Below are positions 3,556-44,432 of a stretch of 48,885 bases of DNA, one piece after another (the first letter of the stretch is position 1; each line of letters begins with the position of its first letter). The DNA is from a virus. The position numbers and the translations under genes are program-made. Under the pieces are notes generated by a model. It ran no database searches. It saw only the letters and a list, made by a program, of their open reading frames with translations, and was not told the origin of the DNA. Location of the stretch: UHGV virus genome UHGV-0858861. One strand, written 5' to 3'.

Positions 3556-5126
3556 ATATTCTTGATCGAGTTATTGCGCCGTTTTCACCTCAGAGGGCAT
3601 TAAATCGAGCTTTGGCAAGAAAACGGTTAGAGGCACTTGAAGGTATTAATAACCTTGGATATTCACGTCATGGTGCAAGCACTCATAAAAAATCATTAAG
3701 GGGTTGGTTTAGTAAAGCTGGTTCTCCTGATGATGATATTGTTAAAAATATAGATAAATTGCGTGAGCGTTCTCGTGATCTCTTCATGGGAAACCCGCTA
3801 TCGGTTGGCGCAATAAAAACTATCAGGACCAACGTTGTTGGTTCCGGTTTAAAACTAAATGCGAACATTGATGCCGATTTCTTGGGGATGACGCAGGAAG
3901 AAGCGCGAGCATGGGAAAAGCATGTTGAGCGTGAGTTTAGATTATGGGCTGATTCTCCAAATTGTGATGCATCAAGAATGTGTACTTTTGGACAATTGCA
4001 ATCATTGGTCCAAATATCTGCGTTAACATCTGGCGATATATTTGCTGCGCTACCAGTTATTAAGCGTAAGGGTGTTATATATGATTTGTGCGTCTATTTA
4101 ATTGAAGGTGATCGTGTTTGCAATCCAGAGGATCGTTTTATACCAAATCTTTACGGTGGCGTAGAGGTTGGTGAATTTAGCGAGCCTGTGGCGTACTGGG
4201 TTGCAAAACATCACCCAGCCGGGACTTCTGGTTTTGTAACCCGCAAGTGGGAACGTATTCCCGCATATGGGAGTAAAACAGGAAGAAGAAATATTCTGCA
4301 TGTCATGCAGGATTTTGAAAGGCCTGGGCAACGCCGTGGCGTTCCTGTCCTTGCTCCTGTAATTGAAGCATTGAAGCAGTTAGGACGATACACCGATGCT
4401 GAATTGGTTGCTGCGGTTGTGTCAGGGATGTTTACTGTCTTTATTAAAACAGACGCTCCTGATGGACCAGTCGGTGAATCGGGTATCCCTCAGTACGAGC
4501 AGATCGATAACCATGATGATAATACCCAAGAAATGGGGAATGGCTCCATAGTAAGTTTGGGTGAAGGTGAGTCGATAGATACAGCAAATCCCGGGCGACC
4601 AAATACGGCATTTGATGGTTTTGTTGTCGCCATATGCCGTCAAATTGGGGCTGCTTTAGAACTCCCTTACGAACTCTTGGTAAAGCATTTTACAGCAAGT
4701 TATAGCGCAAGCAGGGCCGCATTACTTGAAGCTTGGAAAATGTTCCGTATGCGACGTGACTGGATGGTTCAGTCATTTTGCCAACCGATCTATGAGGAAT
4801 GGTTGGCCGAAGCCGTGGCTAAAGGTCGTGTTATTGCCCCTGGTTTTTTTTATGGGCCTGAATATCGCGCTGCATGGAGTGGCGCTCAATGGTATGGCCC
4901 ATCACAAGGCCAATTAGATCCCCTTAAAGAAGTCAAAGCTGCAAAACTGCGTGTTGAGGAAACATTCTCTACCCGTGAAAAGGAAGCGGCTGAAATGTCA
5001 GGTCTTAACTGGGAAGAAACCGCACAAATTTGTGGCAGAGAAGAGAATGCTCGCCGTGAGTTGGGGCTTATTAATCCTCCTGTTTCTGAGGTAAATGAAC
5101 AAAATATGGAGACTGATGATGCCTAA
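3552..5126 (+). CDS. portal protein (lambda gpB family)
   Basis: 524-aa ORF following gpW-like gene; size and synteny of lambda-family portal. Confidence 0.8.
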   Translation: MNILDRVIAPFSPQRALNRALARKRLEALEGINNLGYSRHGASTHKKSLRGWFSKAGSPDDDIVKNIDKLRERSRDLFMGNPLSVGAIKTIRTNVVGSGLKLNANIDADFLGMTQEEARAWEKHVEREFRLWADSPNCDASRMCTFGQLQSLVQISALTSGDIFAALPVIKRKGVIYDLCVYLIEGDRVCNPEDRFIPNLYGGVEVGEFSEPVAYWVAKHHPAGTSGFVTRKWERIPAYGSKTGRRNILHVMQDFERPGQRRGVPVLAPVIEALKQLGRYTDAELVAAVVSGMFTVFIKTDAPDGPVGESGIPQYEQIDNHDDNTQEMGNGSIVSLGEGESIDTANPGRPNTAFDGFVVAICRQIGAALELPYELLVKHFTASYSASRAALLEAWKMFRMRRDWMVQSFCQPIYEEWLAEAVAKGRVIAPGFFYGPEYRAAWSGAQWYGPSQGQLDPLKEVKAAKLRVEETFSTREKEAAEMSGLNWEETAQICGREENARRELGLINPPVSEVNEQNMETDDA

Positions 5127-11596: not shown

Positions 11597-14389
11597 ATGG
11601 CCAGCAATAAGAACTTTAAGCTGGCTTTTGAAATTGGCGGCAAAGTTGCCGCCTCTCTCCCCAAAAGTTTTACTACAGCTAATCAGGCTGTTGCTAAATT
11701 AAATGCAGAGCTTGCTGGATTAACGAAAGAACATGGGGAAATTCAAAAGCTACAATCTGTAAAAGTAAAGGTTGGACAGACTGCCCTCGAATATCATAAA
11801 GCTGCTGCTCGCGTTGAAGAGTTACAGAAGCAAATAAAAAACACGGCCAATCCAACCAGAGCGATGCTTCGTGACTTTGAGAAGGCAAAAACACATTCAT
11901 CAAATTTACGAGCATCACTACGTTCTCAGCGTGAAGAACTGGCCGCTTTAAAGTCTGCGTATCAGGGAGCTGATACATCTGCCAGAGCTTTAGCCTCAAG
12001 AGAGAAAGAGCTTAAAGCAAGCATTGATCGTAATCGTGAGGCTCAGGCCCGTAGCGTTGAGCAGGTTAACCGCTACAGAACGGCTTTGGCTTTAGCCAGA
12101 GCAAATGTTCAGCAAGTGAAAAAACAGCAGGAGGAACTTAACCGGGCATTAGAAAAACAACGTATTGATAAAATTAACAGCTATAAAAATGCGTTGGCTG
12201 AAGCACGGAAAAATGTTCTTGCAGTAAAACGTGCTCAGGAGGAGTTAAATCGCGCGTTGGAAAGGCAGCGTGAATTGAAGCGAGAGCATCTTGGTGAGGC
12301 AAAGAGTCAACTTGTAAGGTCAGGATTACAAACTGGTGCTGTAGCGGCTGGTGCATTTGCTGCTGCTAACAATGCAGCAAATTTCAATCGTGAAAACAAA
12401 ATGATTGGTCTTACGGCAGATATGAAGCCGGAAGAAGTTCAGGCGATGGGGCAGGCGATGCTTGTTACCGGAACGGCCACCAACCAGTTTGCATCTGATA
12501 TTCAGGCCGCTCAGGGTTTTCTCGTCGCTGCTGGGCAGGATTATAAAGAGGCTCAGGCGAATCTACTAACTATTGGGCGAACAGCTACAGCTACTGGCTC
12601 TGATATCCTCGATGTCTCGAAAGCATCATTTACATTAAGTGACTCATTGAAGATTGATCCATCTCAAATGAAGTCTGCAATGGGGATTCTGGTTCAGGCA
12701 GGGAAAGAGGGAAACTTTGAATTTAAAGATATGGCCAAAAATCTTCCTGTGCTTGGTGCTCAGTTCCAGGCATTAAAAATGGGAGGTAAAGAAGCCGCCG
12801 CGACGATGGGGGCAGCTTTGCAGATAGCTCGCAAAGGTGCTGCAACTTCGGATGAGGCTGCTAATAATATGAACAACTTTTTGGCGAAAATACTTTCCCC
12901 TGAAACACTAAAAAAAGCAAAGAAAAATTTCGGTGTAGATTTATATAAAATTGTCACAACAGCGCAGAAAAAAGGGAAGAATCCATTCGAAGCTGCAATG
13001 CATTCTGTCATGAAAATGACTAAGAACGGAGATCAGAAGTTACTTGGTGAGCTATTTGGCGATATGCAGGTTCAGAACTTTGTTCGTCCGATGATTCAAA
13101 ACTGGAAGGAATACCAGAGAATCAAAGCAACATCTCTTGGGGCTGGAAGTGCTGTTATTGACCGCGATTTTGCCAACATAACGAAAGACAATGCGGAGCG
13201 ATTGAAACAATTACGTATTCAGGCTAGCAATGCATCATTAAGTTTTGGTCAGGCCTTGCAACCAGCTTTGAATGCCGCGCTTAGTGTTTTGGTTCCGCTG
13301 ATTACAAAAATTAGTGAATTTGTAGCTAACAACCCCAATTTTGTGTCTCAGATTGTGATGGCGGCAGGTGCGTTTCTAACCATGAAAAGTGTGGTTATAG
13401 CGTGTAGGGTAGCTATGCTGGCTTTATCTGTAGCGACAAAGCTAACACCCTTCGGGTGGATTCAGATGGCTATATCTGCACTGGTTGCCGCAGGAATATT
13501 GCTCTATCAGAATTGGGATAAGATCAGAGATTATGCTGTCAGAGTTTGGCCTTCTGTTAAGGAATATACAGTTAAATCATTTGAGGCTATAAAAAACTTT
13601 ATCTTAAACTTTGACCTCAATGGATGGATTATATCTATGTTTGGTAAAGCATGGGATTATCTTTCCAACATAAACTGGAGTTCGGCAGGAGTAAGAATTT
13701 ACAGTACATTAATTAGTGCTTTTAAATGGATGGCTCCGCTTCCGTTCTTAATTAAAGCATTTAAACTTACAACAAATTACCTTTCTGGCATTAACTGGAG
13801 CGAAACAGGAAAGAAAATCATAGATACACTGGTATCTGTTTTTATGCGTTTTTCACCAGTTGGACTCTTTATAAGAGCATTCCAATCTGTAACGGCTTAT
13901 TTATCTGGAATAAACTGGAGTGAGTCAGGTGCAAAAATAATTGAGACGTTAATCACTGGGATAAAATCAAAAGCAAATGCTTTAATTAATGAAGTGAAAG
14001 GCGTTTTTTCTTCTGTACGTGAGTATTTACCGTTCTCTGACGCGAAAAAAGGTCCATTCTCACAGCTAACAAAGTCAGGTGGTGCAATAATGACTACTCT
14101 GGCATCAGGTGTTAGCAGGAATAACAGCTTACAGAATGCAATAGCAACCAAGTTCGGGCAATCAAATTTATCACCTCACGGGATATCTGCCGCCTGGACT
14201 TCTGGACCTCGCCAGAACGTTAACGCTGTGACTGGTGGAATAACCTATTCACCTGTAATCAATCTTCCGGCTGGTTCACCAAAGGAAACTGAGGCGGCAG
14301 CTAAAAGAGCATTAGATGCGGGATATTCTGATTTTGAGAAGAAATTGAGTGCTCATATGTTCCAACAACGGAGATTAAGTTTTGGATGA
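11597..14389 (+). CDS. tail tape measure protein
   Basis: 930-aa ORF; coiled-coil-like Ala/Gln/Lys/Arg-rich N-terminal half with internal repeats, hydrophobic segment, and repeated ...YLSGINWSE... motifs near the C-terminus. Confidence 0.85.
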   Translation: MASNKNFKLAFEIGGKVAASLPKSFTTANQAVAKLNAELAGLTKEHGEIQKLQSVKVKVGQTALEYHKAAARVEELQKQIKNTANPTRAMLRDFEKAKTHSSNLRASLRSQREELAALKSAYQGADTSARALASREKELKASIDRNREAQARSVEQVNRYRTALALARANVQQVKKQQEELNRALEKQRIDKINSYKNALAEARKNVLAVKRAQEELNRALERQRELKREHLGEAKSQLVRSGLQTGAVAAGAFAAANNAANFNRENKMIGLTADMKPEEVQAMGQAMLVTGTATNQFASDIQAAQGFLVAAGQDYKEAQANLLTIGRTATATGSDILDVSKASFTLSDSLKIDPSQMKSAMGILVQAGKEGNFEFKDMAKNLPVLGAQFQALKMGGKEAAATMGAALQIARKGAATSDEAANNMNNFLAKILSPETLKKAKKNFGVDLYKIVTTAQKKGKNPFEAAMHSVMKMTKNGDQKLLGELFGDMQVQNFVRPMIQNWKEYQRIKATSLGAGSAVIDRDFANITKDNAERLKQLRIQASNASLSFGQALQPALNAALSVLVPLITKISEFVANNPNFVSQIVMAAGAFLTMKSVVIACRVAMLALSVATKLTPFGWIQMAISALVAAGILLYQNWDKIRDYAVRVWPSVKEYTVKSFEAIKNFILNFDLNGWIISMFGKAWDYLSNINWSSAGVRIYSTLISAFKWMAPLPFLIKAFKLTTNYLSGINWSETGKKIIDTLVSVFMRFSPVGLFIRAFQSVTAYLSGINWSESGAKIIETLITGIKSKANALINEVKGVFSSVREYLPFSDAKKGPFSQLTKSGGAIMTTLASGVSRNNSLQNAIATKFGQSNLSPHGISAAWTSGPRQNVNAVTGGITYSPVINLPAGSPKETEAAAKRALDAGYSDFEKKLSAHMFQQRRLSFG

Positions 14390-18720: not shown

Positions 18721-20511
18721 GTGAGTAAATTATTATTTACGATGACTGACGCCGGGCGTCAGGAGTTGGTTAATGCCAACAAAACAGGAACAAATAAAGT
18801 TGAGATTGTTTCTGTTGGTTTAGGTAGTAGATATTATGTCACGTCAACCTCACAAACAAATATAACAGACGAAATAAAACGACTTACCACAATAGGTGGC
18901 AAAGTTGTTTCCCCTGATACAATTCATGTAACGGCGAAGGATGATAGTAAAGATGAGTATGTTGTCCATACAATAGGATTGTATACAAATAAGGGAAGGT
19001 TGTTTGCTGTATACTCGCAAGAACAAGCAATAATAAATAAAGCATCATCTACTATTGCTTTAATATCAAGTGACATAGCAATTAAGACTCTTGATACTAA
19101 AAATATTACATTTGGTGATATTGAGTTTATTAATCCTCCCGCGACCGAAACTGTTGTTGGGGTTGCAAGATTTGCTAATGAACAAGAAATTGATGCAGGT
19201 ACAGATGATTCCCTTGCTGTTTCAGCAAAGCGGCTTAAGCAAGCCATTGTGAAACATGAGCAATCACGTAATCATCCTGATGCAACTTTAACCTCAAAAG
19301 GCTTTGTTCAACTTAGCAGCGCCACCAATAGCACGTCTGAAACGCTTGCTGCGACGCCTAAGGCTGTTAAGGCAGCATATGACCTGGCTAACGCTAAATA
19401 CACCGCACAGGACGCTACCACGGCGCGAAAAGGGATTGTTCAGCTTAGTAGCGCAACTAACAGCGATTCTGAGACGCTGGCAGCAACGCCAAAGGCGGTA
19501 AAGGCAGCATATGACCTTGCTAACGCTAAATACACCGCACAGGACGCTACCACAGCGCGAAAAGGGATTGTTCAGCTCAGTAGCGCCACCAACAGCACGT
19601 CTGAAACACTGGCCGCGACATCAAAAGCTGTAAAGGTGGTAATGGATGAAACGAACAAGAAAGCGCCCCTGAACAGTCCGGCGCTGAGCGGAACACCAAC
19701 AACACCAACGGCGACTAAGGGAACGAATAACACTCAGATCGCAAGCACAGCTTTCGTTATGGCTGCGATTGCTGAACTTGTAGATTCGTCACCTGATGCA
19801 CTGAACACGCTGAACGAACTGGCTGCGGCGCTGGGCAATGACCCGAATTTTGCGACCACCATGACTAACGCGCTTGCGGGTAAGCAACCGAAGGATGCCA
19901 CCCTGACGGCGCTGGCGGAGCTTGCTACATCAGCAGATAAACTCCCATATTTTACAGGGGCAGATCGTGCCGCGTTAACCGCGTTGACAAGTGTTGGACG
20001 TGCCATTCTTGGTAAAACCAGCACTCAGGGCGTTCTTGATTACCTTGGTTTGGGAGAAGGCTCTGCATTACCGGTTGGTGTGCCTGTTCCGTGGCCTTCA
20101 GCCACACCACCGACAGGCTGGCTGAAATGCAATGGTGCGGCTTTTTCTGCTGAACAATACCCGGAACTGGCAAAGGCTTATCCGACAAATAAATTGCCTG
20201 ATTTACGCGGCGAATTCATTCGTGGCTGGGATGACGGGCGCGGAATTGATACCGGACGTGAGATGCTTTCATATCAGGAAGGCACTATCGTATCCGGGTT
20301 TGATGATAATGATACCGGAGATATCAGTTCACTCAGCTCTACACAATACGGATTTGGTGACACTTTAACCTCTAATCAATGGGCGTCCATAAGTGGCAAA
20401 AGGTGGATATTTGATGCATCCAACAAAGGTGCACAAAAATATGACTGGTGGGCTTATGTTTCAGCTCGCCCGCGCAATATTGCATTTAATTACATCGTGA
20501 GGGCCGCCTGA
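18721..20511 (+). CDS. tail fibre protein (constant N-terminal part plus current C-terminal variable cassette)
   Basis: 596-aa ORF; three tandem ~40-aa repeats (...VQLSSATNS.SETLAATPKAVKAAYDLANAKYTAQDATTARKGI...); 3' end lies inside the invertible segment. Confidence 0.8.
   Translation: MSKLLFTMTDAGRQELVNANKTGTNKVEIVSVGLGSRYYVTSTSQTNITDEIKRLTTIGGKVVSPDTIHVTAKDDSKDEYVVHTIGLYTNKGRLFAVYSQEQAIINKASSTIALISSDIAIKTLDTKNITFGDIEFINPPATETVVGVARFANEQEIDAGTDDSLAVSAKRLKQAIVKHEQSRNHPDATLTSKGFVQLSSATNSTSETLAATPKAVKAAYDLANAKYTAQDATTARKGIVQLSSATNSDSETLAATPKAVKAAYDLANAKYTAQDATTARKGIVQLSSATNSTSETLAATSKAVKVVMDETNKKAPLNSPALSGTPTTPTATKGTNNTQIASTAFVMAAIAELVDSSPDALNTLNELAAALGNDPNFATTMTNALAGKQPKDATLTALAELATSADKLPYFTGADRAALTALTSVGRAILGKTSTQGVLDYLGLGEGSALPVGVPVPWPSATPPTGWLKCNGAAFSAEQYPELAKAYPTNKLPDLRGEFIRGWDDGRGIDTGREMLSYQEGTIVSGFDDNDTGDISSLSSTQYGFGDTLTSNQWASISGKRWIFDASNKGAQKYDWWAYVSARPRNIAFNYIVRAA
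19297..19630 (+). repeat. tandem ~120-bp repeats (about 2.7 copies) within the tail fibre gene
   Basis: Near-identical DNA and protein repeats visible at about 19300-19420, 19420-19540 and 19540-19630. Confidence 0.8.
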
Positions 20512-24180: not shown

Positions 24181-24388
24181 GAAATAAGGCCTACGGCCGG
24201 GCTTTGCAGGAGGAAGGGGCGAGCCTTATCAATAAACGTCGATAAATACGCACACAGTAGCCATCAGAACGCGATAAAACGTAAGAAACATCATTTCCTA
24301 TTAGACATAGAAAACTTGTCTTATACGCAATGTAGTAAATTTCTATTGCCACATAGGAAAAGATTTCCTACCATCGTAGATATAATAA

Positions 24389-24688
24389 ATGGAGATGGTT
24401 ATGGATAAAGATACTGTTTTAAAAATGTTGAATCCGGCTTGTTTAAAAAAAGCGGATGAATGGGAATCTCCTACATGTGGAGAAGTTCGGGCAGTCATTG
24501 GCCTGACTGGAATGAGCGGCTCGCAGTTGGCCAAAAAACTAGGCTTAAAAGATAGTCGCAATGTTCGCAACTGGCAGATGTTAAAGGAGTCCACATCCAG
24601 ATCCAGCATTCCGTATGCAGCCTGGGCGCTGCTGTGTTACTTCGCTGGGTTAGGGTTAATCTTCATTGATAACAAAACAGATGTTTGA
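24389..24688 (+). CDS. HTH-domain protein (XRE/DUF1870-like)
   Basis: 99-aa ORF (probable start 24401 after a GGAG SD) with HTH-like segment (MSGSQLAKKLGLKDSRNVRNWQ). Confidence 0.4.
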   Translation: MEMVMDKDTVLKMLNPACLKKADEWESPTCGEVRAVIGLTGMSGSQLAKKLGLKDSRNVRNWQMLKESTSRSSIPYAAWALLCYFAGLGLIFIDNKTDV

Positions 24689-24975
24689 AACATGCAAATA
24701 TGAGGTTTGTTATGGAACTTGTACGCAAAACACGCAAAGAGTTCTTGGACCTGTATCGCATGGGAGCTTTCACTTGTGTTGTGGCTACCCAGGACGAAGT
24801 GACAAAAAGCTGGCGGCTTTTTGCTCTCAATAAAAAAGGGATTGCCGTTTTCATTGAAAAAGCCCGTGGTGGTATCCGCGAATGGGCGGGATTGAATTAT
24901 GTGGCTGATTTTTGCGCAGCTATGGGGATTCGTCGCTGGGAAGTCCATATGCCAGGAGTAAAGTCACAAAAATAG
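24685..24975 (+). CDS. hypothetical protein
   Basis: 96-aa ORF coupled to the upstream HTH gene. Confidence 0.35.
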   Translation: MKHANMRFVMELVRKTRKEFLDLYRMGAFTCVVATQDEVTKSWRLFALNKKGIAVFIEKARGGIREWAGLNYVADFCAAMGIRRWEVHMPGVKSQK

Positions 24976-25213
24976 GGCTTTCGCGTCGAAAATGAGGCGA
25001 AACTGAAAACGAGATTTCATTAACAAATAAGCAACATAAAAAACGGTGGAAAACGCCCAGGAAAACATGATCTTTTGAGCGGATTTTTTAGATCCGACAA
25101 TGAACGGTGATCCGGTGGTGCCGATAACGTCCATTATGTTAAATAGCCCCGTTTTTCTTGAAATTATAACCCACAGGTTATATAGTTAGTGATATAAACT
25201 ACAGGTTATAGGA

Positions 25214-25567
25214 TTGAGCATGTGGACGGTACTTTTTAGCCAGCGATTTGACGACTGGCTAAATGAGCAAGAAGACGCTCTTCAGGAAAAGGTTTTGGCT
25301 GATTTGAAAAAGCTACAGGTTTACGGACCTGAGTTACCCAGGCCATATGCCGATACCGTAAAAGGTTCTCGGTACAAAAATATGAAAGAGCTTCGCGTTC
25401 AGTTTTCTGGCCGTCCGATAAGAGCCTTTTATGCGTTCGATCCGATTCGCCGGGCCATCGTTCTTTGTGCAGGAGACAAAAGTAACGATAAACGGTTTTA
25501 TGAAAAACTGGTGCGTATAGCTGAGGATGAGTTTGCAGCACATCTGAACACACTGGAGAGCAAGTAA
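25214..25567 (+). CDS. type II toxin, RelE/ParE superfamily (HigB-like, Gp49-type)
   Basis: 117-aa ORF upstream of and overlapping an XRE-HTH gene, i.e. the reversed toxin-then-antitoxin order of HigBA-type modules. Confidence 0.55.
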   Translation: MSMWTVLFSQRFDDWLNEQEDALQEKVLADLKKLQVYGPELPRPYADTVKGSRYKNMKELRVQFSGRPIRAFYAFDPIRRAIVLCAGDKSNDKRFYEKLVRIAEDEFAAHLNTLESK

Positions 25568-25866
25568 TGAGAACATTAGATGAGGTGATTGCCAGCCGTT
25601 CACCTGAAAGCCAGGCGCGAATTAAAGAAATGGCAGATGAGATGATTCTTGAGGTCGGCTTGCAGATGATGCGTGAAGAACTCCAGTTATCACAAAAACA
25701 GGTTGCTGAGGCGATGGGTATAAGCCAGCCAGCAGTAACAAAGCTGGAGCAGCGCGGAAATGATTTAAAGCTGGCGACATTAAAGCGTTACGTTGAAGCT
25801 ATGGGAGGCAAATTAAGCCTAGATGTTGAGCTTCCCACAGGAAAACGAATAGCGTTTAACATCTGA
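25567..25866 (+). CDS. HigA-like antitoxin (XRE-family HTH)
   Basis: 99-aa ORF with HTH (LSQKQVAEAMGISQPAVTKLE) overlapping the toxin stop codon; terminator follows. Confidence 0.55.
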   Translation: MRTLDEVIASRSPESQARIKEMADEMILEVGLQMMREELQLSQKQVAEAMGISQPAVTKLEQRGNDLKLATLKRYVEAMGGKLSLDVELPTGKRIAFNI

Positions 25867-25880
25867 TCAGAACGAATGAT

Positions 25881-25908
25881 AAGCCCCTGTTGCAAAGGGG
25901 CTTTTTTG
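25881..25908 (+). terminator. rho-independent terminator after the higBA-like pair
   Basis: Hairpin AAGCCCC-TGTTGCAA-AGGGGCTT followed by TTTTTT. Confidence 0.6.
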
Positions 25909-25913
25909 TGCTC

Positions 25914-26029
25914 ATAGAATTATATAATTATATATTTATATAAAAAGTGCTTTACGGGTGGGAAAAAATTTCCTAAGGTTATACCCGAAACCGAGCGATA
26001 CCCGCCCTGGTTAAACCGGAGATAACCCG
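25914..26029 (+). promoter_or_regulatory. conserved promoter + 5' leader module, copy 1
   Basis: AT-rich palindromic box (TATATAATTATATA), -35-like TTTACG, dyad GGAAA-AAA-TTTCC in spacer, -10-like TAAGGT, then a conserved 50-nt leader with GGAG SD running to the ATG at 26030; near-identical to copies at 35973 and 44044. Confidence 0.55.
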
Positions 26030-26410
26030 ATGAGCATGATTAAAATCCGCAAAAACGCTTTCCTTAAAATTCAAACTATCCTAGCTGGTTCTGTTGGCGT
26101 GATTTGCCGTTCTTCTTCAAGCCGCATCGATGACGGCTACGATGATGAGTACCGTGTGTCCTCGTGCGATGAGGCTTTAACCTGGCTGAAGGAGAATCAG
26201 GAACGTGCCCAGGTATATCTGGAAACAGAGAACGGCAATCAGATGCTGCGTATTAGCGGTCGTTATGGATTTGAAACTACATTCATGGCCTATTTTAATC
26301 AGGCTTACTTTGACAAGGAGCTGGCCTGGTACACTGATCGCATGAGCAAAAGCGAGCCAGCCCCGATTACACCGCCGAACAATAAACCATTTTTATTCCT
26401 CGTTAAGTAA
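26030..26410 (+). CDS. hypothetical protein, first gene behind module copy 1 (candidate anti-defence protein)
   Basis: 126-aa ORF with no recognisable motif; followed by an Aca2/DUF1870-like HTH gene. Confidence 0.4.
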   Translation: MSMIKIRKNAFLKIQTILAGSVGVICRSSSSRIDDGYDDEYRVSSCDEALTWLKENQERAQVYLETENGNQMLRISGRYGFETTFMAYFNQAYFDKELAWYTDRMSKSEPAPITPPNNKPFLFLVK

Positions 26411-26440
26411 ACACAATGCGCAAAGTGTCATTTTGACACT

Positions 26441-26746
26441 TTGCGAGTGTTAATATTGTGCGAGGAGGATGCTATGACGGGTTATGAATTGAAATTATGG
26501 CGTCGTGGGATGAACTGGACGCAGGAGCGAGCCGCCGAAGAATTTGGGATATCGTTGGCTACATATAAGCGATATGAGAAGGGGGAGCCGCCGAGGGTCA
26601 TTGAGATGGCCATTCGCGTTCTGTCGTTTGACGATATGGTGAAGGATCTTTCACACCTTGATAAAGACGCGATTCTGTTAAGGCTGCAAACCCTTGTATG
26701 GGAAAAGGTTAAAGTGTCGTCAGAATTGGAACAAGGGATCAAATGA
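26441..26746 (+). CDS. HTH regulator, Aca2/YdiL (DUF1870)-like
   Basis: Probable start at 26474 (MTGYELKLWRRGMNWTQERAAEEFGISLATYKRYEKGEPPRVIE...), pattern closely resembling YdiL/Aca2-family N-termini as recalled; last gene of a short operon. Confidence 0.45.
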   Translation: MRVLILCEEDAMTGYELKLWRRGMNWTQERAAEEFGISLATYKRYEKGEPPRVIEMAIRVLSFDDMVKDLSHLDKDAILLRLQTLVWEKVKVSSELEQGIK

Positions 26747-28026: not shown

Positions 28027-28053
28027 AAGCGCCCAAATCGGGCGCTTTGTTTT
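28027..28053. terminator. bidirectional terminator between convergent genes
   Basis: Hairpin GCGCCC-AAATC-GGGCGC flanked by A-rich and T-rich runs. Confidence 0.55.
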
Positions 28054-29194
28054 ATGGTTTTGCACCTGCGGCCAGTTTATCCGCAGATATCTTTATCAGT
28101 TCCTGTAGTGTCCTGGCTGGTAGGTTTGCATCCAGAACGCTGAGTATGCTGTTGTGATCCGCCTGGTCGACTACTTTGCCTGTCGGTGGTAGTAGCTTGA
28201 GCTGAGGATTCAGGTCCTCGTCAAAGCTGATAAGTGCTCTGGCGTTCCTGAGCAGATCAAGAAGTAAGGCTGATATCACATTTTCCTGAGTCATTGCTGG
28301 CAGATTTAGCGCCGCTTTGGTTTTCCCTGTTGCCTTGTCAAACTCCTTGATTAGTTCCTTCCTGTAGTTCGGTTCCGTTAATAGCCGATTATGCTCTGTT
28401 GCCGCGCGGATAATCGTTTTTTCCTGGTACAGTCGTTTAGCCAGATCTCGCTCGTACTGTGTTTTTAACACGCTGCTGATAGCGTTAAAGGCTTCAATGT
28501 AGGCCAGCTTGATATCCTTCACGCCTGGACCGTCGATACTTTCCATGAGCAAGGTAAATCCGTCTTTTGTCATGCGATATATTGTTATTTCGCGGTCGCT
28601 TCCTTCCAGCGGTCGTTGTTCTTTAAAGAAGTGACGCGCCGCAGCCGTGCGAGGAATGCGTAACGCATCGATGGCCATAACGATGGAATTGTTTGTGGTG
28701 CTGAATGCCTGAGCAACATCGGCTGAGGTTGTGAGTGGCTCGTTGTTGCACACCTTAATGTAAAACATCGGTTTGGCGTTGAGCGTATCGACAACCTCAC
28801 GAGCATTGTTTGGCGAGACGGTAACGGTCGCGGCCGTTTGCGCGTTCTGGTTGAAATAGCAGTCTTCCAGCCGTTCGAACACATCCCACGCTTGGTTAGT
28901 TTCAAGCATTTTGGCGTGACGTGCAGCCCCGCGTTCTGTCCAGAGAATTAGGGAGCGGGCATTTTTACCAACTAACCCGATTGTTTCGGGTCTGTTCTTG
29001 AACTCGCGTAATTCGTTTTTTTCAATTTTAAAGTAATGCTTTCCGGCTACGAATCGCGTCGTGTTGTTCAGAAAGTTATCAGAAATGTTTTTGATTTTTG
29101 TTCCGTATAACTGCGCCAGAAGTTCACTAGTGATAACGGGGATCTGGTTATGCAGGATAGGCTGTAGGGTGTTAACGGTCGGAAGCGTTTTCAT
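28052..29194 (-). CDS. antirepressor-like regulatory protein (ORF6N-like N-terminus + Rha-like domain)
   Basis: 380-aa ORF; architecture of phage antirepressor/Rha regulators; coupled to a small upstream ORF. Confidence 0.6.
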   Translation of the reverse strand: MKTLPTVNTLQPILHNQIPVITSELLAQLYGTKIKNISDNFLNNTTRFVAGKHYFKIEKNELREFKNRPETIGLVGKNARSLILWTERGAARHAKMLETNQAWDVFERLEDCYFNQNAQTAATVTVSPNNAREVVDTLNAKPMFYIKVCNNEPLTTSADVAQAFSTTNNSIVMAIDALRIPRTAAARHFFKEQRPLEGSDREITIYRMTKDGFTLLMESIDGPGVKDIKLAYIEAFNAISSVLKTQYERDLAKRLYQEKTIIRAATEHNRLLTEPNYRKELIKEFDKATGKTKAALNLPAMTQENVISALLLDLLRNARALISFDEDLNPQLKLLPPTGKVVDQADHNSILSVLDANLPARTLQELIKISADKLAAGAKP

Positions 29195-29382
29195 TTTGCA
29201 CCTCCCATAACTACTTTGGTTACGAGGGAGATTTTTGCGTCAGAAACAGCGTTATCGTTGCTGGCGATGCGCATAGCTTCGCGCTCGATGATTTCAGCCA
29301 GGCGTAATTTATCGGCGTATGAGGCTTTCTTGAGAAGGAGCTTTACGAGGTTGACGTAATAGTCATGGGGTAAGTTTGTCAT
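29191..29382 (-). CDS. small protein in icd-like position upstream of antirepressor
   Basis: 63-aa ORF whose stop overlaps the antirepressor start; SD AAGGGA upstream. Confidence 0.4.
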   Translation of the reverse strand: MTNLPHDYYVNLVKLLLKKASYADKLRLAEIIEREAMRIASNDNAVSDAKISLVTKVVMGGAK

Positions 29383-29439
29383 TGTGATGATTCCCTTAAA
29401 GGTTAAGGATACTCACCACCGTCAGGTTCCAATCATTGG

Positions 29440-29570
29440 GTGGTGAGACGTGCAGGGTTGGAACTACCGGACACAATGACGAACCGGCGAGTCTTACGAC
29501 TCCCCCGCACGCCCCACCATAATTTGGGGGTAGCAGTGCTTTACGCATAAAAAAACCGCTAACGCGGTAT
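29440..29570 (-). ncRNA. candidate c4-like antisense RNA region of an immI-like locus
   Basis: Minus-strand leader carries two hairpin-loop copies of GAUUGGAACC (29424-29433 and 29590-29599) flanking a segment with the complementary GGUAGUUCCAACC (29455-29470), plus a minus-strand terminator hairpin near 29550-29570. Confidence 0.3.
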
Positions 29571-29680
29571 GCGCCATTGTGTCTACGGGGTTCCAATCCC
29601 GGCCGTAGATTTTGCTACGGCTCGGAAAGTGTCCACCAATGGCGCATTCATGTCAATACGGCGGGATTTTAACAGACTAA

Positions 29681-30418: not shown

Positions 30419-30744
30419 CGTGCTGATCGGATTCGCGGTCCTTTCAGCATAACGTCGTTGTACTAATACAACCACGCAAGCACAAACAGCAACTACATTC
30501 TTACCCAACTGAGGTGAATAGTCCACTATTCATATAAAAAAATTTAGCTCATTAGCTCATGCAAAATGAAGGTTTTTAACTTATTTACGTGTAATCTTAT
30601 GTAATAAAAGCGTTTTTTATTCCTTCATTATGAAGGGTATGACGTGTAATATGGCTTGGGGCCTTTCCGCCGATTCGCACCCGGGCACTGACTTTCAGGA
30701 AAGGATTATCCACTTGCCGTACCACGCAGGCACAAACAGCGTGC

Positions 30745-30927
30745 TTGCTCTCGCGTCATTTTCGTCGGTGGGGATGCCGTGAAACGGCCTGTAAGGGCCA
30801 CACAATGAAAAAATACTACATGTGTATTTTTATCGTTGTTACTGGAGCTTTGTTTACGCCACATGGGGAGGGTTGGAAGATTACTGATAACGCTCTGAAT
30901 GTGACGATAAACATTAGCAGCAAGTAG
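30745..30927 (+). CDS. small hydrophobic peptide (about 40 aa from the ATG at 30805)
   Basis: MKKYYMCIFIVVTGALFT... with one predicted TM helix, SD AAGGG upstream, strong terminator immediately downstream. Confidence 0.3.
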   Translation: MLSRHFRRWGCRETACKGHTMKKYYMCIFIVVTGALFTPHGEGWKITDNALNVTINISSK

Positions 30928-30932
30928 CGATT

Positions 30933-30956
30933 AGGCCCCTTCGGGGGCCTTTTTTA
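30933..30956 (+). terminator. strong rho-independent terminator
   Basis: Hairpin AGGCCCC-TTCG-GGGGCCT followed by TTTTTT. Confidence 0.7.
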
Positions 30957-31426: not shown

Positions 31427-31469
31427 GTGTATCCCCTCTTATATAAATCTATAAAACTATAATTATATA

Positions 31470-32138
31470 TTACGCGGCAGTAGTCAGAGCCTCAAGCTGG
31501 TTGATAATCCCCTGAATAACGTCGTCTGCCTTTTTGCGTGGCGCAACGTATGAGCACTCAATGAGGCTTAAGCCCTTATCCTGAGCTTTGCTCAGAGCTG
31601 GCTTGTGGGGAATGTACTTATCAACAACAAAGTATGGCGTATTAGCCAGGTACTCTTGGGCTTCAATATAGTCAGCTTCGTTTTCAGCCGCGCCGGAAAA
31701 CACCATGCAAATTTTCTTGATTGGTACACCCTTTTTAACGATGCCGTGAGCAGTGTTAACGGTGGTTTCTAGGTCATCGGTAGAGAATCTGGTTGGCAAA
31801 ATAACCATATCCAGAAATTCAGAGAGCTTCGGTACTGATTCAGATGCGTAGGCACCGCCATCGACGATAACCAGGTCGTATACTTCTGATTCGATGATTT
31901 TCTGGACTTGTGATGGTGTGCCGCACGGCTGCGCCGCGATTGCTGGTTCGATATTGTTGGCCATTCTGCGTTGTACCCAACGCGTTACCGTTCCGTTAAG
32001 CACATCCATATCGATCAGGCATACATTCCAGCCAGCCTTTGCATAAGCAACTGCTAAAGCACGGGCAATTGTTGATTTGGTTACGCCGCCTTTTCCGTTG
32101 AAAATACCTACAGAGATAGTCATTTGTCGAGACTCCAT
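31470..32138 (-). CDS. parA: ParA/ParF-type partition ATPase
   Basis: 222-aa ORF with deviant Walker A (GKGGVTKST). Confidence 0.8.
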   Translation of the reverse strand: MESRQMTISVGIFNGKGGVTKSTIARALAVAYAKAGWNVCLIDMDVLNGTVTRWVQRRMANNIEPAIAAQPCGTPSQVQKIIESEVYDLVIVDGGAYASESVPKLSEFLDMVILPTRFSTDDLETTVNTAHGIVKKGVPIKKICMVFSGAAENEADYIEAQEYLANTPYFVVDKYIPHKPALSKAQDKGLSLIECSYVAPRKKADDVIQGIINQLEALTTAA

Positions 32139-32270
32139 GTGTTTGGTTATATAATTCTATAAATCTATATTTATAGAACGAGGTAAGCATAACCAACTTT
32201 TTGGCGGATGAAAAGCGTTTTATATAATTATATAAATCTATAATCATATAAGCGGGCGTTAGCCCGCTTG
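32139..32270. promoter_or_regulatory. AT-rich palindromic iterons upstream of parF (candidate centromere/operator)
   Basis: Repeated TATAAATCTATA and TATATAATTATATA motifs at 32157-32185 and 32225-32250; related boxes at 31436-31468 and upstream of the conserved promoter modules. Confidence 0.45.
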
Positions 32271-35544: not shown

Positions 35545-35922
35545 GTGAGACGCGATCTGGATAGCTTGTTTGAGCTATGGGCGCTGTGGGTGCGCAATGG
35601 CTGCAACGCCCGTAGCGGTTTCGCGTCGATGTTAGAAATGATGATGGTTACGCGTTGCCAGTTTACCGGAGGGGGCGGCGCACCAAATGACTCACTGGAA
35701 ACCAGTATCGAGGGAGCGGTGACGGCCCTCACGGTAGTTGATGAGACTGCGGCGCTGGTTGTCCGAATTGAATACGGGGCGTGGGAGATTCGGGGCCTCG
35801 ACATAAATGCACCGCATATTGATAAAGCCCACGCCCTTTCTCTTAGTCTCAGACAGTATCGCCGGAAGCTGGCAAAAGCCAGGGCGTATGTTGTCGACTA
35901 TTTGAAAAAGCGAAGAGAGTAA
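35545..35922 (+). CDS. hypothetical protein (possible regulator, function unassigned)
   Basis: 125-aa ORF, last gene before module copy 2. Confidence 0.3.
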   Translation: MRRDLDSLFELWALWVRNGCNARSGFASMLEMMMVTRCQFTGGGGAPNDSLETSIEGAVTALTVVDETAALVVRIEYGAWEIRGLDINAPHIDKAHALSLSLRQYRRKLAKARAYVVDYLKKRRE

Positions 35923-35972
35923 AAGTGTCATTTTGAGCTGTTTTGATGGTGTGTAGATATCGGGGACATCGA

Positions 35973-36091
35973 AAATCTATAAATATATAATTATAGATTT
36001 ATATAAAAAGTGCTTTACAGGTGGGAAAAAATTTCCTAAGGTTATACCCGAAACCGAGCGATACCCGCCCTGGTTAAACCGGAGAAATCTG
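35973..36091 (+). promoter_or_regulatory. conserved promoter + 5' leader module, copy 2
   Basis: Near-identical to 25914-26029 and 44044-44162 from the AT-rich box through TTTACA, GGAAAAAATTTCC and the leader to the SD; ATG at 36092. Confidence 0.55.
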
Positions 36092-37159
36092 ATGAATAAA
36101 CAAGTAATTATTTCTGACTGGATCAACAACCCTAACAGCCTGTTAAGCACTGATACTGGCTACCTATTACGCCATGTTAATGGTCGTATGGTCAAAAGCG
36201 ATGAGCACGAAACCTTTTTCTTTGTTGAAGATGATGGGCGTATCTATGAGGATGGTTACTCTTATGAAGCCCAAACTGGTTGTATCCCTGCGGAGCTGGT
36301 GGACGTAACAGAAGATCTGCGCAAAGCATGGCTTGAACAGCAGCAGCGCGGAGATGATTACGTAAACACCTATCAGGAACGCCAGAACGCGCGTCTTGCC
36401 CGATATATTGCTCGTGCAGAAAAAGCCAGAAAAGAAGGTGCGGTAGCGCATAAGCGAGCGCATGACCTGTTGGATGTGATCCCGTTAGGCCAGCCGATTT
36501 TAGTTGACCATTATAGCGCGAAAGGCCATCGCCGCCGTTTGTCTAAAGCTGATGCGTTATTAAGAAAAGCGTTTGTTGAATGCGAAAGTAAAGCATCACA
36601 CTACGAGAGCAAAGCCGCAGGTGTTGGTCGTAATGGAATTTCGTCTGATGATCCTGATGCGCTATTTAAGTTGCTTCGTAAGCTGCAAGGCTGCATGAAG
36701 TCACACGTCAAAATGAAGGCCGCAAATAAGGCCATTCGCAAATACAAAAAAGACCAATTACAGCAGCTTTCTGCATTAATCGATCTCAGGTTTACAGAAA
36801 GCGAAGCCAAAGAGTTACTGGTCGGAGATTTCTGTGGGCGCATCGGATTCCCTTCATACGTACTGAGCAACAATAACGCCGAGATCAAACGACTACAGAG
36901 CCGTATTAAGGAGCTTGAATCGGTCAAGTCTGTAACAGGAGCACAGCGCGAAGAATACGACGACTTTTCTATGGAGATAGATCCAGAGGATAACCGCATC
37001 CTGTTTTATTTCCCTGGCAAACCAGAGGCAAACATTCGTTCGCTGCTTAAATCACGCGCCTTTAAGTGGAGTCCAACCCGTAATGCATGGGTTCGCAAGA
37101 TTACTCCAAATGCCCTGGCTGATGCCCGATATCTGAAAGAATCGCTATTGAAAGCCTGA
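36092..37159 (+). CDS. hypothetical protein with DUF3560-like C-terminus (candidate early/anti-defence protein)
   Basis: 355-aa ORF directly behind module copy 2; C-terminal motif ILFYFPGKPEANIRSLLKSRAFKWSPTRNAWVRK. Confidence 0.4.
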   Translation: MNKQVIISDWINNPNSLLSTDTGYLLRHVNGRMVKSDEHETFFFVEDDGRIYEDGYSYEAQTGCIPAELVDVTEDLRKAWLEQQQRGDDYVNTYQERQNARLARYIARAEKARKEGAVAHKRAHDLLDVIPLGQPILVDHYSAKGHRRRLSKADALLRKAFVECESKASHYESKAAGVGRNGISSDDPDALFKLLRKLQGCMKSHVKMKAANKAIRKYKKDQLQQLSALIDLRFTESEAKELLVGDFCGRIGFPSYVLSNNNAEIKRLQSRIKELESVKSVTGAQREEYDDFSMEIDPEDNRILFYFPGKPEANIRSLLKSRAFKWSPTRNAWVRKITPNALADARYLKESLLKA

Positions 37160-37215
37160 CAGTAAGCCTACGGCGGGATGTCTCCCGCCGTATATAGAAT
37201 TATATATTTATATAA

Positions 37216-37518
37216 ATGTATAAGGACGCCTCGACAATGAAACGCAAAATTATTAACCCCCAAGATGTGATTAATTTCCTGACCGATCACCCATGTTCAA
37301 AAGTGGACGTAATCGCGGAGCACATTGGTGTGTCGCAGAACTCTATGCGTTGCAGACTGAGAAGCATGGTTGCCGAAGGACAGATAACAACCAGGAAAAT
37401 AAATGGTTGCCTGTACTACTCCGCTAAACCGGAATTGCCATTTGGCATGAATTCTAACTCCATGTTGTTTAACACCTTATTAGCCAAAGTTAAGCCGTTG
37501 AGAGGGGCTGTGGCATGA
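37216..37518 (+). CDS. winged-helix DNA-binding protein
   Basis: ORF (probable start 37236) with wHTH-like segment (VDVIAEHIGVSQNSMRCRLRSMVAEGQI); AT-rich box upstream at 37190-37215. Confidence 0.4.
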   Translation: MYKDASTMKRKIINPQDVINFLTDHPCSKVDVIAEHIGVSQNSMRCRLRSMVAEGQITTRKINGCLYYSAKPELPFGMNSNSMLFNTLLAKVKPLRGAVA

Positions 37519-42785: not shown

Positions 42786-42909
42786 TACCGCCTGTGATTG
42801 GGTAAAGCCCATCTACCTGACTGATCACGATATCGATGTTATGGACCGCCAGACAAAGAAAGATATTCTGGCTCATAACAGGGCATGGGAAATCAACTGC
42901 CTCAAGTAA
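42700..42909 (+). CDS. o-spanin lipoprotein (Rz1-like), partly embedded in the Rz-like frame
   Basis: 69-aa ORF in alternate frame with lipobox-like LIASC. Confidence 0.45.
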   Translation: MYSRVLTIWLMTMLIASCGSRGSVPVVVDTACDWVKPIYLTDHDIDVMDRQTKKDILAHNRAWEINCLK

Positions 42910-43078
42910 TATATATTTCTATAATTATATAAATATATAGTTACAACATTCTATGCGCTTTTCTCATGAGCGCACGCATCAACCATGTTTGTCTGATATG
43001 CCGCCGCGCCCAAAAATCCTGAATTTATTGGCTGGGATTTTCGTGCGCGGCGCCACACCAGACAAACAGATCAAATAT

Positions 43079-43154
43079 GGCCCCTTAGCTCAGTGGTTAG
43101 AGCAGGCGACTCATAATCGCACGGTCATCGGTTCAAATCCGGTAGGGGCCACCA
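43079..43154 (+). tRNA. tRNA with CAU anticodon (elongator-type; ileX-like tRNA-Ile2 or tRNA-Met)
   Basis: 76-nt cloverleaf folded by hand: 7-bp acceptor stem (GGCCCCT/AGGGGCC), D-arm GCTCAGTGGTTAGAGC, anticodon loop CTCATAA, T-loop TTCAAAT, discriminator A and encoded CCA; 1:72 G-C pair excludes initiator type. Confidence 0.85.
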
Positions 43155-43462: not shown

Positions 43463-44050
43463 ATGGAGGCAATTGCATTGTTTAATCTGATTTATGCAGA
43501 TCCCCCCTGGGAATACAAAGACAAGTGTAAGGATGGGAATCGTGGCGCTGGTTTTAAGTATCCAACGATGAAAGCTGAGGAGATTGCTCGTATTCCTGTC
43601 TGGCAGCTTGCTAATCCTGAATCGTGTTTGTTGGCCATGTGGTGGGTTCCGACTCAGCCAGAAGAAGCGTTGCTGGTGGTGAAAGCATGGGGATTCAGGC
43701 TGATGACCATGAAGGGCTTCACATGGAACAAATGTGGTAGCCGACAACCAGATAAGCTGGTGATGGGGATGGGGCATATGACTCGTGCAAACAGTGAAGA
43801 TTGCTTGTTTGCAGTGAAAGGCAAACTACCGACACGTCTTGATGCGGGGATCATTCAGTCGTTTACATCGCCTCGTCTGGAGCATTCTCGGAAGCCTGAT
43901 GTGGTCCGTGACAAGCTGGTAAGGCTGTTAGGTGATGTTCCTCGTATTGAGCTGTTTGCTCGCGGTGATTTACCTGATGGCTGGCATGGCTGGGGCAACC
44001 AGTGCAATGGAGGTATCCAATTGCATGATGCTCTCTGGCAAGTGTCATAG
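43463..44050 (+). CDS. MT-A70-family DNA N6-adenine methyltransferase
   Basis: 195-aa ORF with the catalytic DPPW motif (IYADPPWEY). Confidence 0.75.
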   Translation: MEAIALFNLIYADPPWEYKDKCKDGNRGAGFKYPTMKAEEIARIPVWQLANPESCLLAMWWVPTQPEEALLVVKAWGFRLMTMKGFTWNKCGSRQPDKLVMGMGHMTRANSEDCLFAVKGKLPTRLDAGIIQSFTSPRLEHSRKPDVVRDKLVRLLGDVPRIELFARGDLPDGWHGWGNQCNGGIQLHDALWQVS

Positions 44051-44162
44051 AATTATATAATTATATATTTATATAAAAAGTGCTTTACAGGTGGGAAAAA
44101 ATTTCCTAAGGTTATACCCGGAACCGAGCGATACCCGCCCTGGTTAAACCGGAGATAACCCG
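44044..44162 (+). promoter_or_regulatory. conserved promoter + 5' leader module, copy 3
   Basis: Near-identical to copies 1 and 2 (one substitution in the leader); ATG at 44163. Confidence 0.55.
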
Positions 44163-44432
44163 ATGAAAGTACAAGACCGTGAAGTAGTAAAAAACCTCCT
44201 GCAATACCTGACCTCAAAAAATCTGACTGGCAGCGTTGAGTTCCGTGAAGCGTTAAAACATTTCAACGTCACTACGGTTTATCGTTGGGAAAACAAACAT
44301 TCTGAAAGACCGTATGTGGTGGATGTTTTTGCGCCTGATATTGAGTGCGGTTTTGAGCGCCATTCATTCAAAAAGAAACATTCCGCTGATGTTTTTTGTG
44401 AGGTTGTATGTGCGGCAGGAGATGATGAGTGA
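44163..44432 (+). CDS. hypothetical protein, first gene behind module copy 3
   Basis: 89-aa ORF, no recognisable motif. Confidence 0.35.
   Translation: MKVQDREVVKNLLQYLTSKNLTGSVEFREALKHFNVTTVYRWENKHSERPYVVDVFAPDIECGFERHSFKKKHSADVFCEVVCAAGDDE

Follow-up and report, generated by a model that had tools for sequence, protein, structure and literature searches.

Introduction

Aca2 is a protein of about 116-125 amino acids (aa) with a C-terminal dimerisation domain that contains beta-strands (PMC8434428). Its operator is an inverted repeat (IR), TTCG-N6/8-CGAA, over the acr-aca promoter, and a related hairpin lies in the 5' untranslated region (PMC6765145). It has been reported that one Aca protein can control several operons, up to three, via a repeated cis module (bioRxiv 10.64898/2026.07.27.740549). 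AcrIF24 represses its own operon via a 17-bp IR, TAGCTCGATTCGAGCTA, between the -35 and -10 hexamers (PMC9638941). Anti-defence islands have also been described in the leading regions of plasmids (Samuel et al. 2024; PMC11541004). In this study, we investigated the virus genome UHGV-0858861 (48,885 nt; this whole 48.9-kb stretch is called the window below), which is a complete or nearly complete phage-plasmid. We focused on a two-gene unit at positions 26,030-26,746, in which a gene for a 126-aa protein is followed by a gene for a 90-aa helix-turn-helix (HTH) protein. The original prediction, made from the sequence alone, had read this unit as a candidate anti-defence operon with a strong-looking promoter and an Aca2/DUF1870-like HTH. 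We found that the promoter of the 126-aa gene is shared by three operons and is likely controlled by another small protein of the window, a homologue of the HTH domain of AcrIF24.

The locus resembles the AcrIF24 system of Pseudomonas (acrIF23-acrIF24), whose own promoter reads TTGCAT-N17-TATAGT. In both, a 17-bp palindrome of the form TAG...CTA fills the 17-nt spacer of a TTGCA-type promoter, several operator-bearing operons occur per regulator, and the HTH is the last gene of its own operon, here in relatives of the window. The open reading frame (ORF) 24389-24688 is homologous to the HTH body domain of AcrIF24. Unlike AcrIF24, its product has only about 95-99 aa and lacks the head and wing (Cascade-binding) domains, and the ORF, which lies 1.6 kb away from the 126-aa gene, has a promoter of its own. 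The sequence of the operator is different as well, none of the controlled genes is a known acr, and the host is a phage-plasmid. The N-terminal HTH pattern of the 90-aa HTH, MTxYEL...R...AA...S.R.Y..YE.G, remotely resembles that of Aca2/YdiL (for example in acrIF8-aca2 of phage ZF40) in an alignment from residue 1, and the protein is likewise a small putative autoregulator with a palindromic operator, encoded downstream of a small unknown gene. However, it has a helical tail instead of the dimerisation domain, and its predicted operator, AAGTGnCA-N3-6-TGnCACTT rather than TTCG-N6/8-CGAA, lies at its own start and has no RNA mimic in the leader. As in leading-region islands, small and mostly unannotated genes lie by toxin-antitoxin (TA) modules, relatives are found beside antirestriction, psiA and methylase genes, and early expression is apparently built into dedicated repeated promoters. 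In contrast to those islands, the element is non-mobilisable and enters as double-stranded DNA by infection, and its promoters are duplex sigma-70 promoters with operators, not Frpo single-stranded DNA promoters.

Results

A promoter-leader module shared by three operons

The promoter of the 126-aa gene belongs to a 122-nt promoter-leader module that is present in three copies, and the ATG of the first gene in the operon marks the exact end of each copy (Table 1). In 23 copies taken from diverged elements, the -35 hexamer, the 17-nt spacer and the -10 hexamer have kept their register. A sigma-70 consensus scan of the window did not call the module promoter because its -10 hexamer is TAAGGT; the only consensus-grade sigma-70 promoter of the region (25158-25186) lies in front of the Gp49/RelE TA pair. 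The conservation in register indicates that the module promoter is a real sigma-70 promoter, though not a consensus-strong one here, so that the strong-looking promoter of the original prediction stood as a promoter and fell short in strength. An Frpo-type single-stranded DNA promoter was also considered and was rejected, since the element is non-mobilisable and the promoter is of the ordinary duplex type.

The spacer is filled by a palindrome that we regard as a putative operator. In Salmonella it reads TAGGAAAATATTTCCTA, elsewhere TAGGAC-N5-GTCCTA, and at locus L109 TAGGCC-N5-GGCCTA; both half-sites vary symmetrically between lineages. At L050, the AT-rich element upstream of the -35 hexamer is a perfectly palindromic 22-bp sequence (GATATAAATATATATTTATATC). 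We read this element as either an UP element or another operator. Extra palindromes of the same TATATAATTATATA type were found on both sides of parA, behind the DUF3560 gene and close to the lysis region (31439-31471, 32147-32253, 37193-37227 and 42901-42958). Another protein encoded by the element may use them as a second operator or as a centromere-like site. At the 3' end of the module, AAACCGGAGA around the Shine-Dalgarno (SD) sequence was invariant in nine copies from E. coli, Salmonella and Serratia elements.

In relatives, the same module drives other small genes, namely a 103-113-aa family, a 76-80-aa domain and a DUF1391 protein. Such cargo loci were found in the Serratia plasmid CP083756 (L008; 27640-28062, 29413-29766 and 37075-37503) and at L052 (4913-6524). 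The module thus appears to behave like an expression cassette for swappable cargo.

An AcrIF24-like protein is a candidate repressor of the shared promoter

According to the original prediction, an Aca2-type action of the 90-aa HTH on both DNA and RNA would explain the conserved leader. This corresponds to a bona fide acr-aca2 operon, in which the downstream HTH, as Aca2, represses the shared promoter and binds the leader RNA of three operons. The order of the genes, a small unknown gene and then an HTH, fits such an operon, and Aca2 is known to act on DNA and on 5' leader hairpins. However, the Serratia plasmid CP083756 carries three module copies, and tblastn detected neither the 90-aa HTH nor the 126-aa gene in it. 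Loci L047-L053 and L109 also kept the module, and the 90-aa HTH was not among their genes. Because the Serratia plasmid keeps the modules without it, the 90-aa HTH cannot be the cause of the conserved leader.

The product of ORF 24389-24688 is a different candidate. The profile of its family matched AcrIF24 in the PDB (7dtr_A, 7xi1_A and 7elm_U; E 1.3e-8 to 2.1e-8 over about 66 residues), followed by weaker matches to Aca3 and Aca1. The alignment covered only the HTH part of AcrIF24 (residues ~93-166 and 150-224). The promoter of this ORF also carries a 17-bp palindrome between its -35 and -10 hexamers, which brings the number of such palindromes in the window to four, and the same arrangement precedes the orthologues in Salmonella (L007, 29090) and Serratia (L008, 27003).

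The distribution of the ORF 24389-24688 family followed that of the operator. Members were found in 12 of 12 operator-bearing loci and in none of five partial loci without the operator that belong to the IRKNA family, which is the family of the 126-aa protein and is named for its conserved N-terminal motif IRKNAxKKI. L109, with its symmetric variant operator, is among the 12 loci, though it was left out of the family profile. In several relatives, a module-driven operon ends with the gene for the AcrIF24-like HTH, which stands after the IRKNA-family gene in L009 and L046 and after a 76-aa or 113-aa gene in L052/L053 and L050. Since the operator of AcrIF24 itself shares this geometry, the product of ORF 24389-24688 is likely the master repressor, an Aca-like repressor of the four promoters including that at 25951-25979. 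One regulator thus probably controls several operons through a repeated cis module.

The leader hairpin

The module leader is about 45 nt long and combines a conserved hairpin with a strong SD sequence. The hairpin begins a few nucleotides past the point where transcription is expected to start, and 6 nt separate its end from the SD sequence. A covariance model built from nine module copies matched upstream of IRKNA-family and other small genes in diverged phage-plasmids, and weakly in a lambdoid phage. In the resulting alignment, which was fitted to the model, the hairpin pairing was kept in 95.7% of cells, compared with 83.8% after shuffling and at most 45% when the structure was slid. Compensatory changes were seen at four of the seven pairs in 25 sequences and at two pairs in the nine sequences. 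Rfam had no family for this leader or for the hairpin between the two genes.

The leader hairpin (GGCC...GGCC) resembles neither operator and is dissimilar to that of the 90-aa HTH, and for this reason dual recognition of DNA and RNA is unsupported. This dissimilarity also argues against the acr-aca2 operon. The simplest reading is that the hairpin makes the mRNA more stable or adjusts its translation. A protein may also bind it, though this is unsupported.

The 126-aa protein and the IRKNA family

The 126-aa ORF is a genuine coding gene. Its differences from the Salmonella orthologue (66% identity) were distributed over codon positions 1, 2 and 3 as 32, 24 and 69. Both this ORF and the HTH ORF that ends at 26746 lie on the plus strand, as originally described. 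The protein had 17 close homologues, and a profile search of 1.8 billion representatives gave 38 clusters. The family shares a conserved N-terminal domain of about 100 aa (IRKNAxKKI...DDSYD...WL...GxYxF) followed by variable tails. In the AlphaFold model, which is confident (predicted local distance difference test score, pLDDT, 77.7; predicted template modelling score, pTM, 0.70), the protein forms an alpha-beta-beta-alpha-beta-beta-beta-alpha domain with a disordered tail.

The protein falls in PHROG 8090, whose function is unknown. It matched no Pfam or NCBIfam family, and the search with PADLOC, a library of defence-system proteins, was empty. Neither its sequence nor its fold matched anything known, including the Acr, ArdA/B/C, Ocr, Tad, Gad and other characterised anti-defence members, and the fold was not toxin-like. 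A lipoprotein or signal-peptide N-terminus was also considered. It was rejected, as Ile stands at -1 to the Cys, most relatives have Ser in place of the Cys, and the N-terminus is modelled as a helix and a strand.

The IRKNA N-domain is fused to the 76-80-aa domain in P0062, P0066 and L046, and the same domain is a separate adjoining gene in L052 and L053. At the syntenic site in Serratia, this 76-80-aa domain is the module-driven gene in place of the 126-aa gene. ArdC-N genes lie beside IRKNA relatives in four independent settings (L010, where ArdC-N is fused to RadC; L011-13; L014; and L108), and Dcm- and Dam-like methylases are found near relatives. This association with anti-restriction genes makes the 126-aa protein a plausible anti-defence or establishment candidate.

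Other relatives follow repA in other phage-plasmids, and one homologue lies directly after the Q antiterminator of a lambdoid phage. The 126-aa gene itself is flanked by repA and its TA module on one side and by an immI-like c4/antirepressor and parAB region on the other. These positions would also suit a modulator of establishment, replication, the SOS response or the lysis-lysogeny decision, with the HTH as an unrelated autoregulated passenger. The nearby module-driven genes, for a DUF3560 protein with a primase-like C-terminus and a MarR-like protein, look DNA-metabolic or regulatory, and the 126-aa protein is not acidic and is unlike any known inhibitor. On the other hand, unrelated elements repeatedly have ArdC-N, RadC and orphan methylase genes beside the relatives, the locus varies between sister elements (a different syntenic gene in Serratia) as is typical of arms-race cargo, and the control logic is of the Aca type. 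We therefore regard a life-cycle modulator as a serious but minority possibility.

The 90-aa HTH and its own palindrome

All 24 aligned relatives of the HTH start with MTG(Y/F)EL, which indicates that the true start of the 90-aa HTH is ATG 26474 and not TTG 26441. In Pfam, the protein matched only the generic HTH_3 and HTH_31, and PADLOC gave nothing useful. Searched against the PDB with phmmer, the single sequence matched MqsA and HipB at E ~0.1 and did not match Aca2. With a profile of the 24 relatives, the best PDB match was Aca2 7ezy_A (E 4.6e-4, residues 1-68), and Aca2 of ZF40 (7vjo, 8w35) reached only E ~0.56. Pfam PF08965 (Aca2_YdiL) did not match the 90-aa HTH at E<=1 and was touched by three of the 24 relatives, at best with E 0.063. 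In the structural model (pLDDT 81), the HTH is followed by two long helices. Foldseek found nothing at E<=0.001 with this model; template modelling (TM) scores of 0.3-0.4 were to generic Xre proteins, among which Aca2 7vjp ranked sixth (E 0.19, TM 0.39/0.30). The Aca2-like N-terminus that had been noted is thus a remote similarity at the level of the family profile, and the protein is not an Aca2/DUF1870 member by Pfam, C-terminal domain or operator.

A perfect palindrome with 12-bp arms, also written AAAGTGTCA-TTT-TGACACTTT, lies between the two genes, and no second full copy was present anywhere in the window. As RNA, it would form an intercistronic hairpin of -22 kcal/mol (z -3). An equivalent IR (AAGTG-n-CA, 3-6 nt, TG-n-CACTT) was found 15-60 nt upstream of the HTH in Salmonella (L007) and in the metagenomic loci L005 and L006. 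It was also present before the HTH in at least 29 of the 34 enterobacterial genomes with a family member, as read by eye from the upstream sequences, and there it usually abuts a TATAAT- or TAAAAT-like -10 hexamer. The palindrome is thus the predicted cognate operator of the 90-aa HTH. Because the IR accompanies family members across unrelated contexts, the HTH with its operator is predicted to be an autorepressor in a portable cassette.

These observations bear on the acr-aca2 operon as well. In its favour, Aca2 was the best PDB match of the family profile, Aca proteins can control up to three operons, and in the HTH-bearing lineages each of the three modules has a half-site-like AAAAGTGC right next to its -35 hexamer. 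However, the Pfam Aca2_YdiL family was not matched, the C-terminal domain of Aca2 is absent and the Foldseek matches are generic Xre proteins. The operator is also not of the Aca2 type, and its only full copy lies downstream of the first gene, where it does not fit the HTH as regulator of the operon promoter. Taken together, we consider an acr-aca2 operon improbable.

The AAAAGTGC sites, which match the left half-site of the HTH operator, lie at 25949-25956, 36012-36019 and 44082-44089. They stand beside the -35 hexamer in E. coli, Salmonella and L022, all of which carry the HTH, and not in Serratia, L048 or L052; a near-variant, AAAAGTGG, occurs in one L050 copy. Half-site matches in the window numbered 11 against 13.5 expected. 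Because half-sites are at chance level, neither these sites nor the partial copy at 35922-35938 were counted as evidence. Their position beside the -35 hexamer may be meaningless, the lineages being related.

Like controller (C) proteins and the Xre antitoxins MqsA and HipB, the 90-aa HTH is a small Xre protein with a putative autoregulatory palindrome over its own -10/+1. If the two genes were a TA or addiction pair in the order of mqsRA or higBA, in which the toxin gene precedes the antitoxin gene, the 126-aa protein would be the toxin and the HTH its autoregulating antitoxin. The weak matches to the MqsA and HipB HTHs, an autoregulatory operator typical of antitoxins, the RelE/Gp49-HTH module directly upstream and HigB/RelE toxins near family members point in this direction. 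However, this HTH is absent from 14 of 16 IRKNA-family loci, and no IRKNA-family gene accompanies it in 34 of 34 genomic loci and in L002-L006; unlike C proteins and Xre antitoxins, its family has no conserved adjoining restriction enzyme or toxin partner. No toxin-like fold was found, the 63-nt gap and the strong hairpin between the genes argue against translational coupling, and the operator lies between the genes and not upstream of the pair. A TA pair is therefore very unlikely.

We also analysed the flanks of the HTH family in GTDB genomes. Among 149 ORFs, the top Pfam families were DUF5983 (11), PsiA (6), DUF932 (6) and the PF03230 antirestriction family (5); HigB (3), ParA-type ATPases, integrases, N6_N4 methylases and IncFII RepA were rarer neighbours. 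This neighbourhood matches the make-up of the leading-region anti-defence islands (PMC11541004). One homologue is divergent from an AcrVA2-like gene, and another is part of an operon that also has a Lar-like and an Mrr_cat gene. At L003 (4001-6716), a homologue lies 12 nt upstream of a gene for a 529-aa AAA_15/AAA_21 ATPase, which is followed by one for a 290-aa HNH-like protein. The latter two may form a Septu-like defence pair, and the HTH family may regulate defence genes too.

The element and other features of the window

The two-gene unit lies in the accessory region of an enterobacterial phage-plasmid of ~48.5 kb, and is likely closed by a bidirectional terminator. With a 1-kb query, megablast matched 62 PLSDB plasmids of ~46-52 kb at >=80% coverage (E. 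coli 58, Salmonella 3 and Klebsiella 1), all 62 of which are non-mobilisable. The Yersinia myophages vB_YpM_39, vB_YpM_41 and vB_YpM_44 also matched; a literature search with their names returned nothing. A near-identical E. albertii plasmid in RefSeq carries P2-like tail genes, repA, a RelE/ParE-HTH TA pair, a Rha regulator, parA, a CI-like HTH, Ref, holins and ParB-like genes. In it, the two genes are labelled "hypothetical protein" and "helix-turn-helix domain-containing protein". A phage-plasmid survey covers only the P1, D6, SSU5 and N15 groups and does not mention ATCC 25922, which has a related 48.5-kb plasmid.

Several other features were observed. A very basic 96-aa ORF (24685-24975; isoelectric point, pI, 10.1) overlaps ORF 24389-24688 by 4 nt; it has 55% identity to its Serratia counterpart and is without family assignment. 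On the minus strand, 28052-29621 shows a P1-type immI-like arrangement, with a C4 antisense RNA (29436-29524) and an isrK-like RNA (29549-29621) upstream of the gene for a 380-aa ORF6N/Rha-domain protein (28052-29194) that is presumably an antirepressor under antisense control. A full-length match to the ryfA small RNA (30657-30955, plus strand, 134.6 bits) and a tRNA gene (43079-43151, plus strand) were also present inside the phage-plasmid. An exact 55-nt direct repeat (1-55 and 3923-3977) may have arisen as an artefact of assembly or circularisation, or may be a terminal feature. In-frame tandem repeats in three copies were found in the tail-fibre gene (19296-19691; 132 nt) and in the tape-measure gene (13654-13938; 120-nt spacing).

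Table 1. Positions of the features discussed in the text
Feature	Position	Strand	Details
AcrIF24-like HTH ORF	24389-24688	+	99 aa; start possibly ATG 24401
Fourth 17-bp palindrome	24354-24370		TAGGAAAAGATTTCCTA; between -35 TTGCCA and -10 TACCAT in the promoter of ORF 24389-24688
Module copy 1	25912-26033	+	122 nt; putative operator 25959-25975; drives the 126-aa gene
Module copy 2	35975-36096	+	Putative operator 36022-36038; drives the DUF3560 protein gene 36092-37159
Module copy 3	44045-44166	+	Putative operator 44092-44108; drives the 89-aa protein gene 44163-44432
AT-rich palindromic element	25917-25949		Core TATATAATTATATA; upstream of -35; present in every module copy
-35 hexamer	25951-25956	+	TTTACG; TTTACA in copies 2 and 3; TTGCA in relatives
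17-bp spacer palindrome	25959-25975		TGGGAAAAAATTTCCTA; between -35 and -10; putative operator
-10 hexamer	25974-25979	+	TAAGGT; TATGGT in Salmonella; TAATAT/TATTAT in Serratia and others
Leader hairpin	25989-26012	+	7 bp, bulged; 5' leader; AACC-GA-GCG...CGC-CCT-GGTT
Shine-Dalgarno sequence	26018-26021	+	GGAG; 8 nt before the ATG
126-aa coding sequence	26030-26410	+	Unannotated family PHROG 8090; alpha/beta fold
Intergenic palindrome	26419-26445		12-bp arms, CGCAAAGTGTCA-TTT-TGACACTTTGCG; between the two genes
90-aa Xre-type HTH	26474-26746	+	ATG 26474 behind SD GAGGAGG 26462-26468
GC-rich stem-loop	26796-26822		T-runs on both sides; called on the minus strand and by reading of the sequence
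Gp49/RelE-type toxin	25214-25567		Directly upstream of the module
HTH antitoxin of the Gp49/RelE module	25567-25866		Directly upstream of the promoter-leader module
Terminator after the TA pair	25881-25903		Insulates the promoter-leader module

Discussion

The locus can be read as an establishment unit made of two independent modules, the first of them under an AcrIF24-like master repressor. The first module would be the sigma-70 promoter with its 17-bp spacer operator, the leader hairpin and the SD sequence, shared by the three operons. The AcrIF24-like HTH would be an autorepressor that keeps the activity of the four promoters low while the element is a plasmid. On entry of naked DNA into a new cell, no repressor would be present, so the promoters would fire and produce a burst of first-gene products, including the 126-aa protein. 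This control would follow acr-aca logic. By association, the 126-aa protein would serve as an early effector and overcome a barrier that the host puts up against establishment, most likely a restriction-type or other DNA-targeting defence. The second module would consist of the 90-aa HTH and the palindromic operator just upstream of it, which travel together through unrelated contexts. The HTH would repress itself, by way of a weak internal promoter, a roadblock or the intercistronic hairpin, and would have no control over the promoter of the 126-aa gene. The acr-aca architecture of the original prediction would thus be kept in its operator-controlled promoter, its small unknown gene and its relatives among anti-restriction genes, with a regulator other than the one picked.

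Several observations weigh against this model. The operator is assigned to ORF 24389-24688 by co-occurrence among elements that are partly related by descent, and the alignment fitted to the model structure biases the hairpin pair counts towards that structure. The 126-aa protein is near-neutral (pI 6.3) and is therefore not an acidic DNA mimic. Members of the HTH family lie directly upstream of defence-like genes (the Septu-like ATPase and HNH pair, and the Mrr_cat protein), so that the family marks conflict-related cargo generally and not anti-defence specifically. Weighing both sides, we give the model as a whole, which is built from sequence comparison, a little less than an even chance. 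It can be extended to the IRKNA family as a new, widespread anti-defence family in a four-promoter regulon under a minimal AcrIF24-like Aca, with a structured leader on every effector mRNA. The DUF3560, 89-aa, 103-113-aa, 76-80-aa and DUF1391 products would then also be counter-defence or establishment effectors. We regard this extension as doubtful, though worth considering.

The family of the 126-aa protein is new and unannotated, and the two-gene unit is accessory to the phage-plasmid. The 90-aa HTH and its operator can be recognised as an autoregulatory cassette, common in the leading regions of plasmids, which helps in annotating the islands there. If the regulon model holds, the 17-bp operator and the leader hairpin would serve as a handle in searches for effector genes that are expressed early, across a whole group of enterobacterial phage-plasmids and in some lambdoid phages, and several unannotated protein families would become testable anti-defence candidates. 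It would also mean that Aca-type control exists outside classical prophage acr loci and that the DNA-binding module of AcrIF24 exists as a free-standing regulator. Clinical E. coli, Salmonella and Klebsiella harbour such elements, which can also bring resistance genes with them, such as TEM-1 in the Serratia relative. The establishment functions of these elements are therefore of practical interest.

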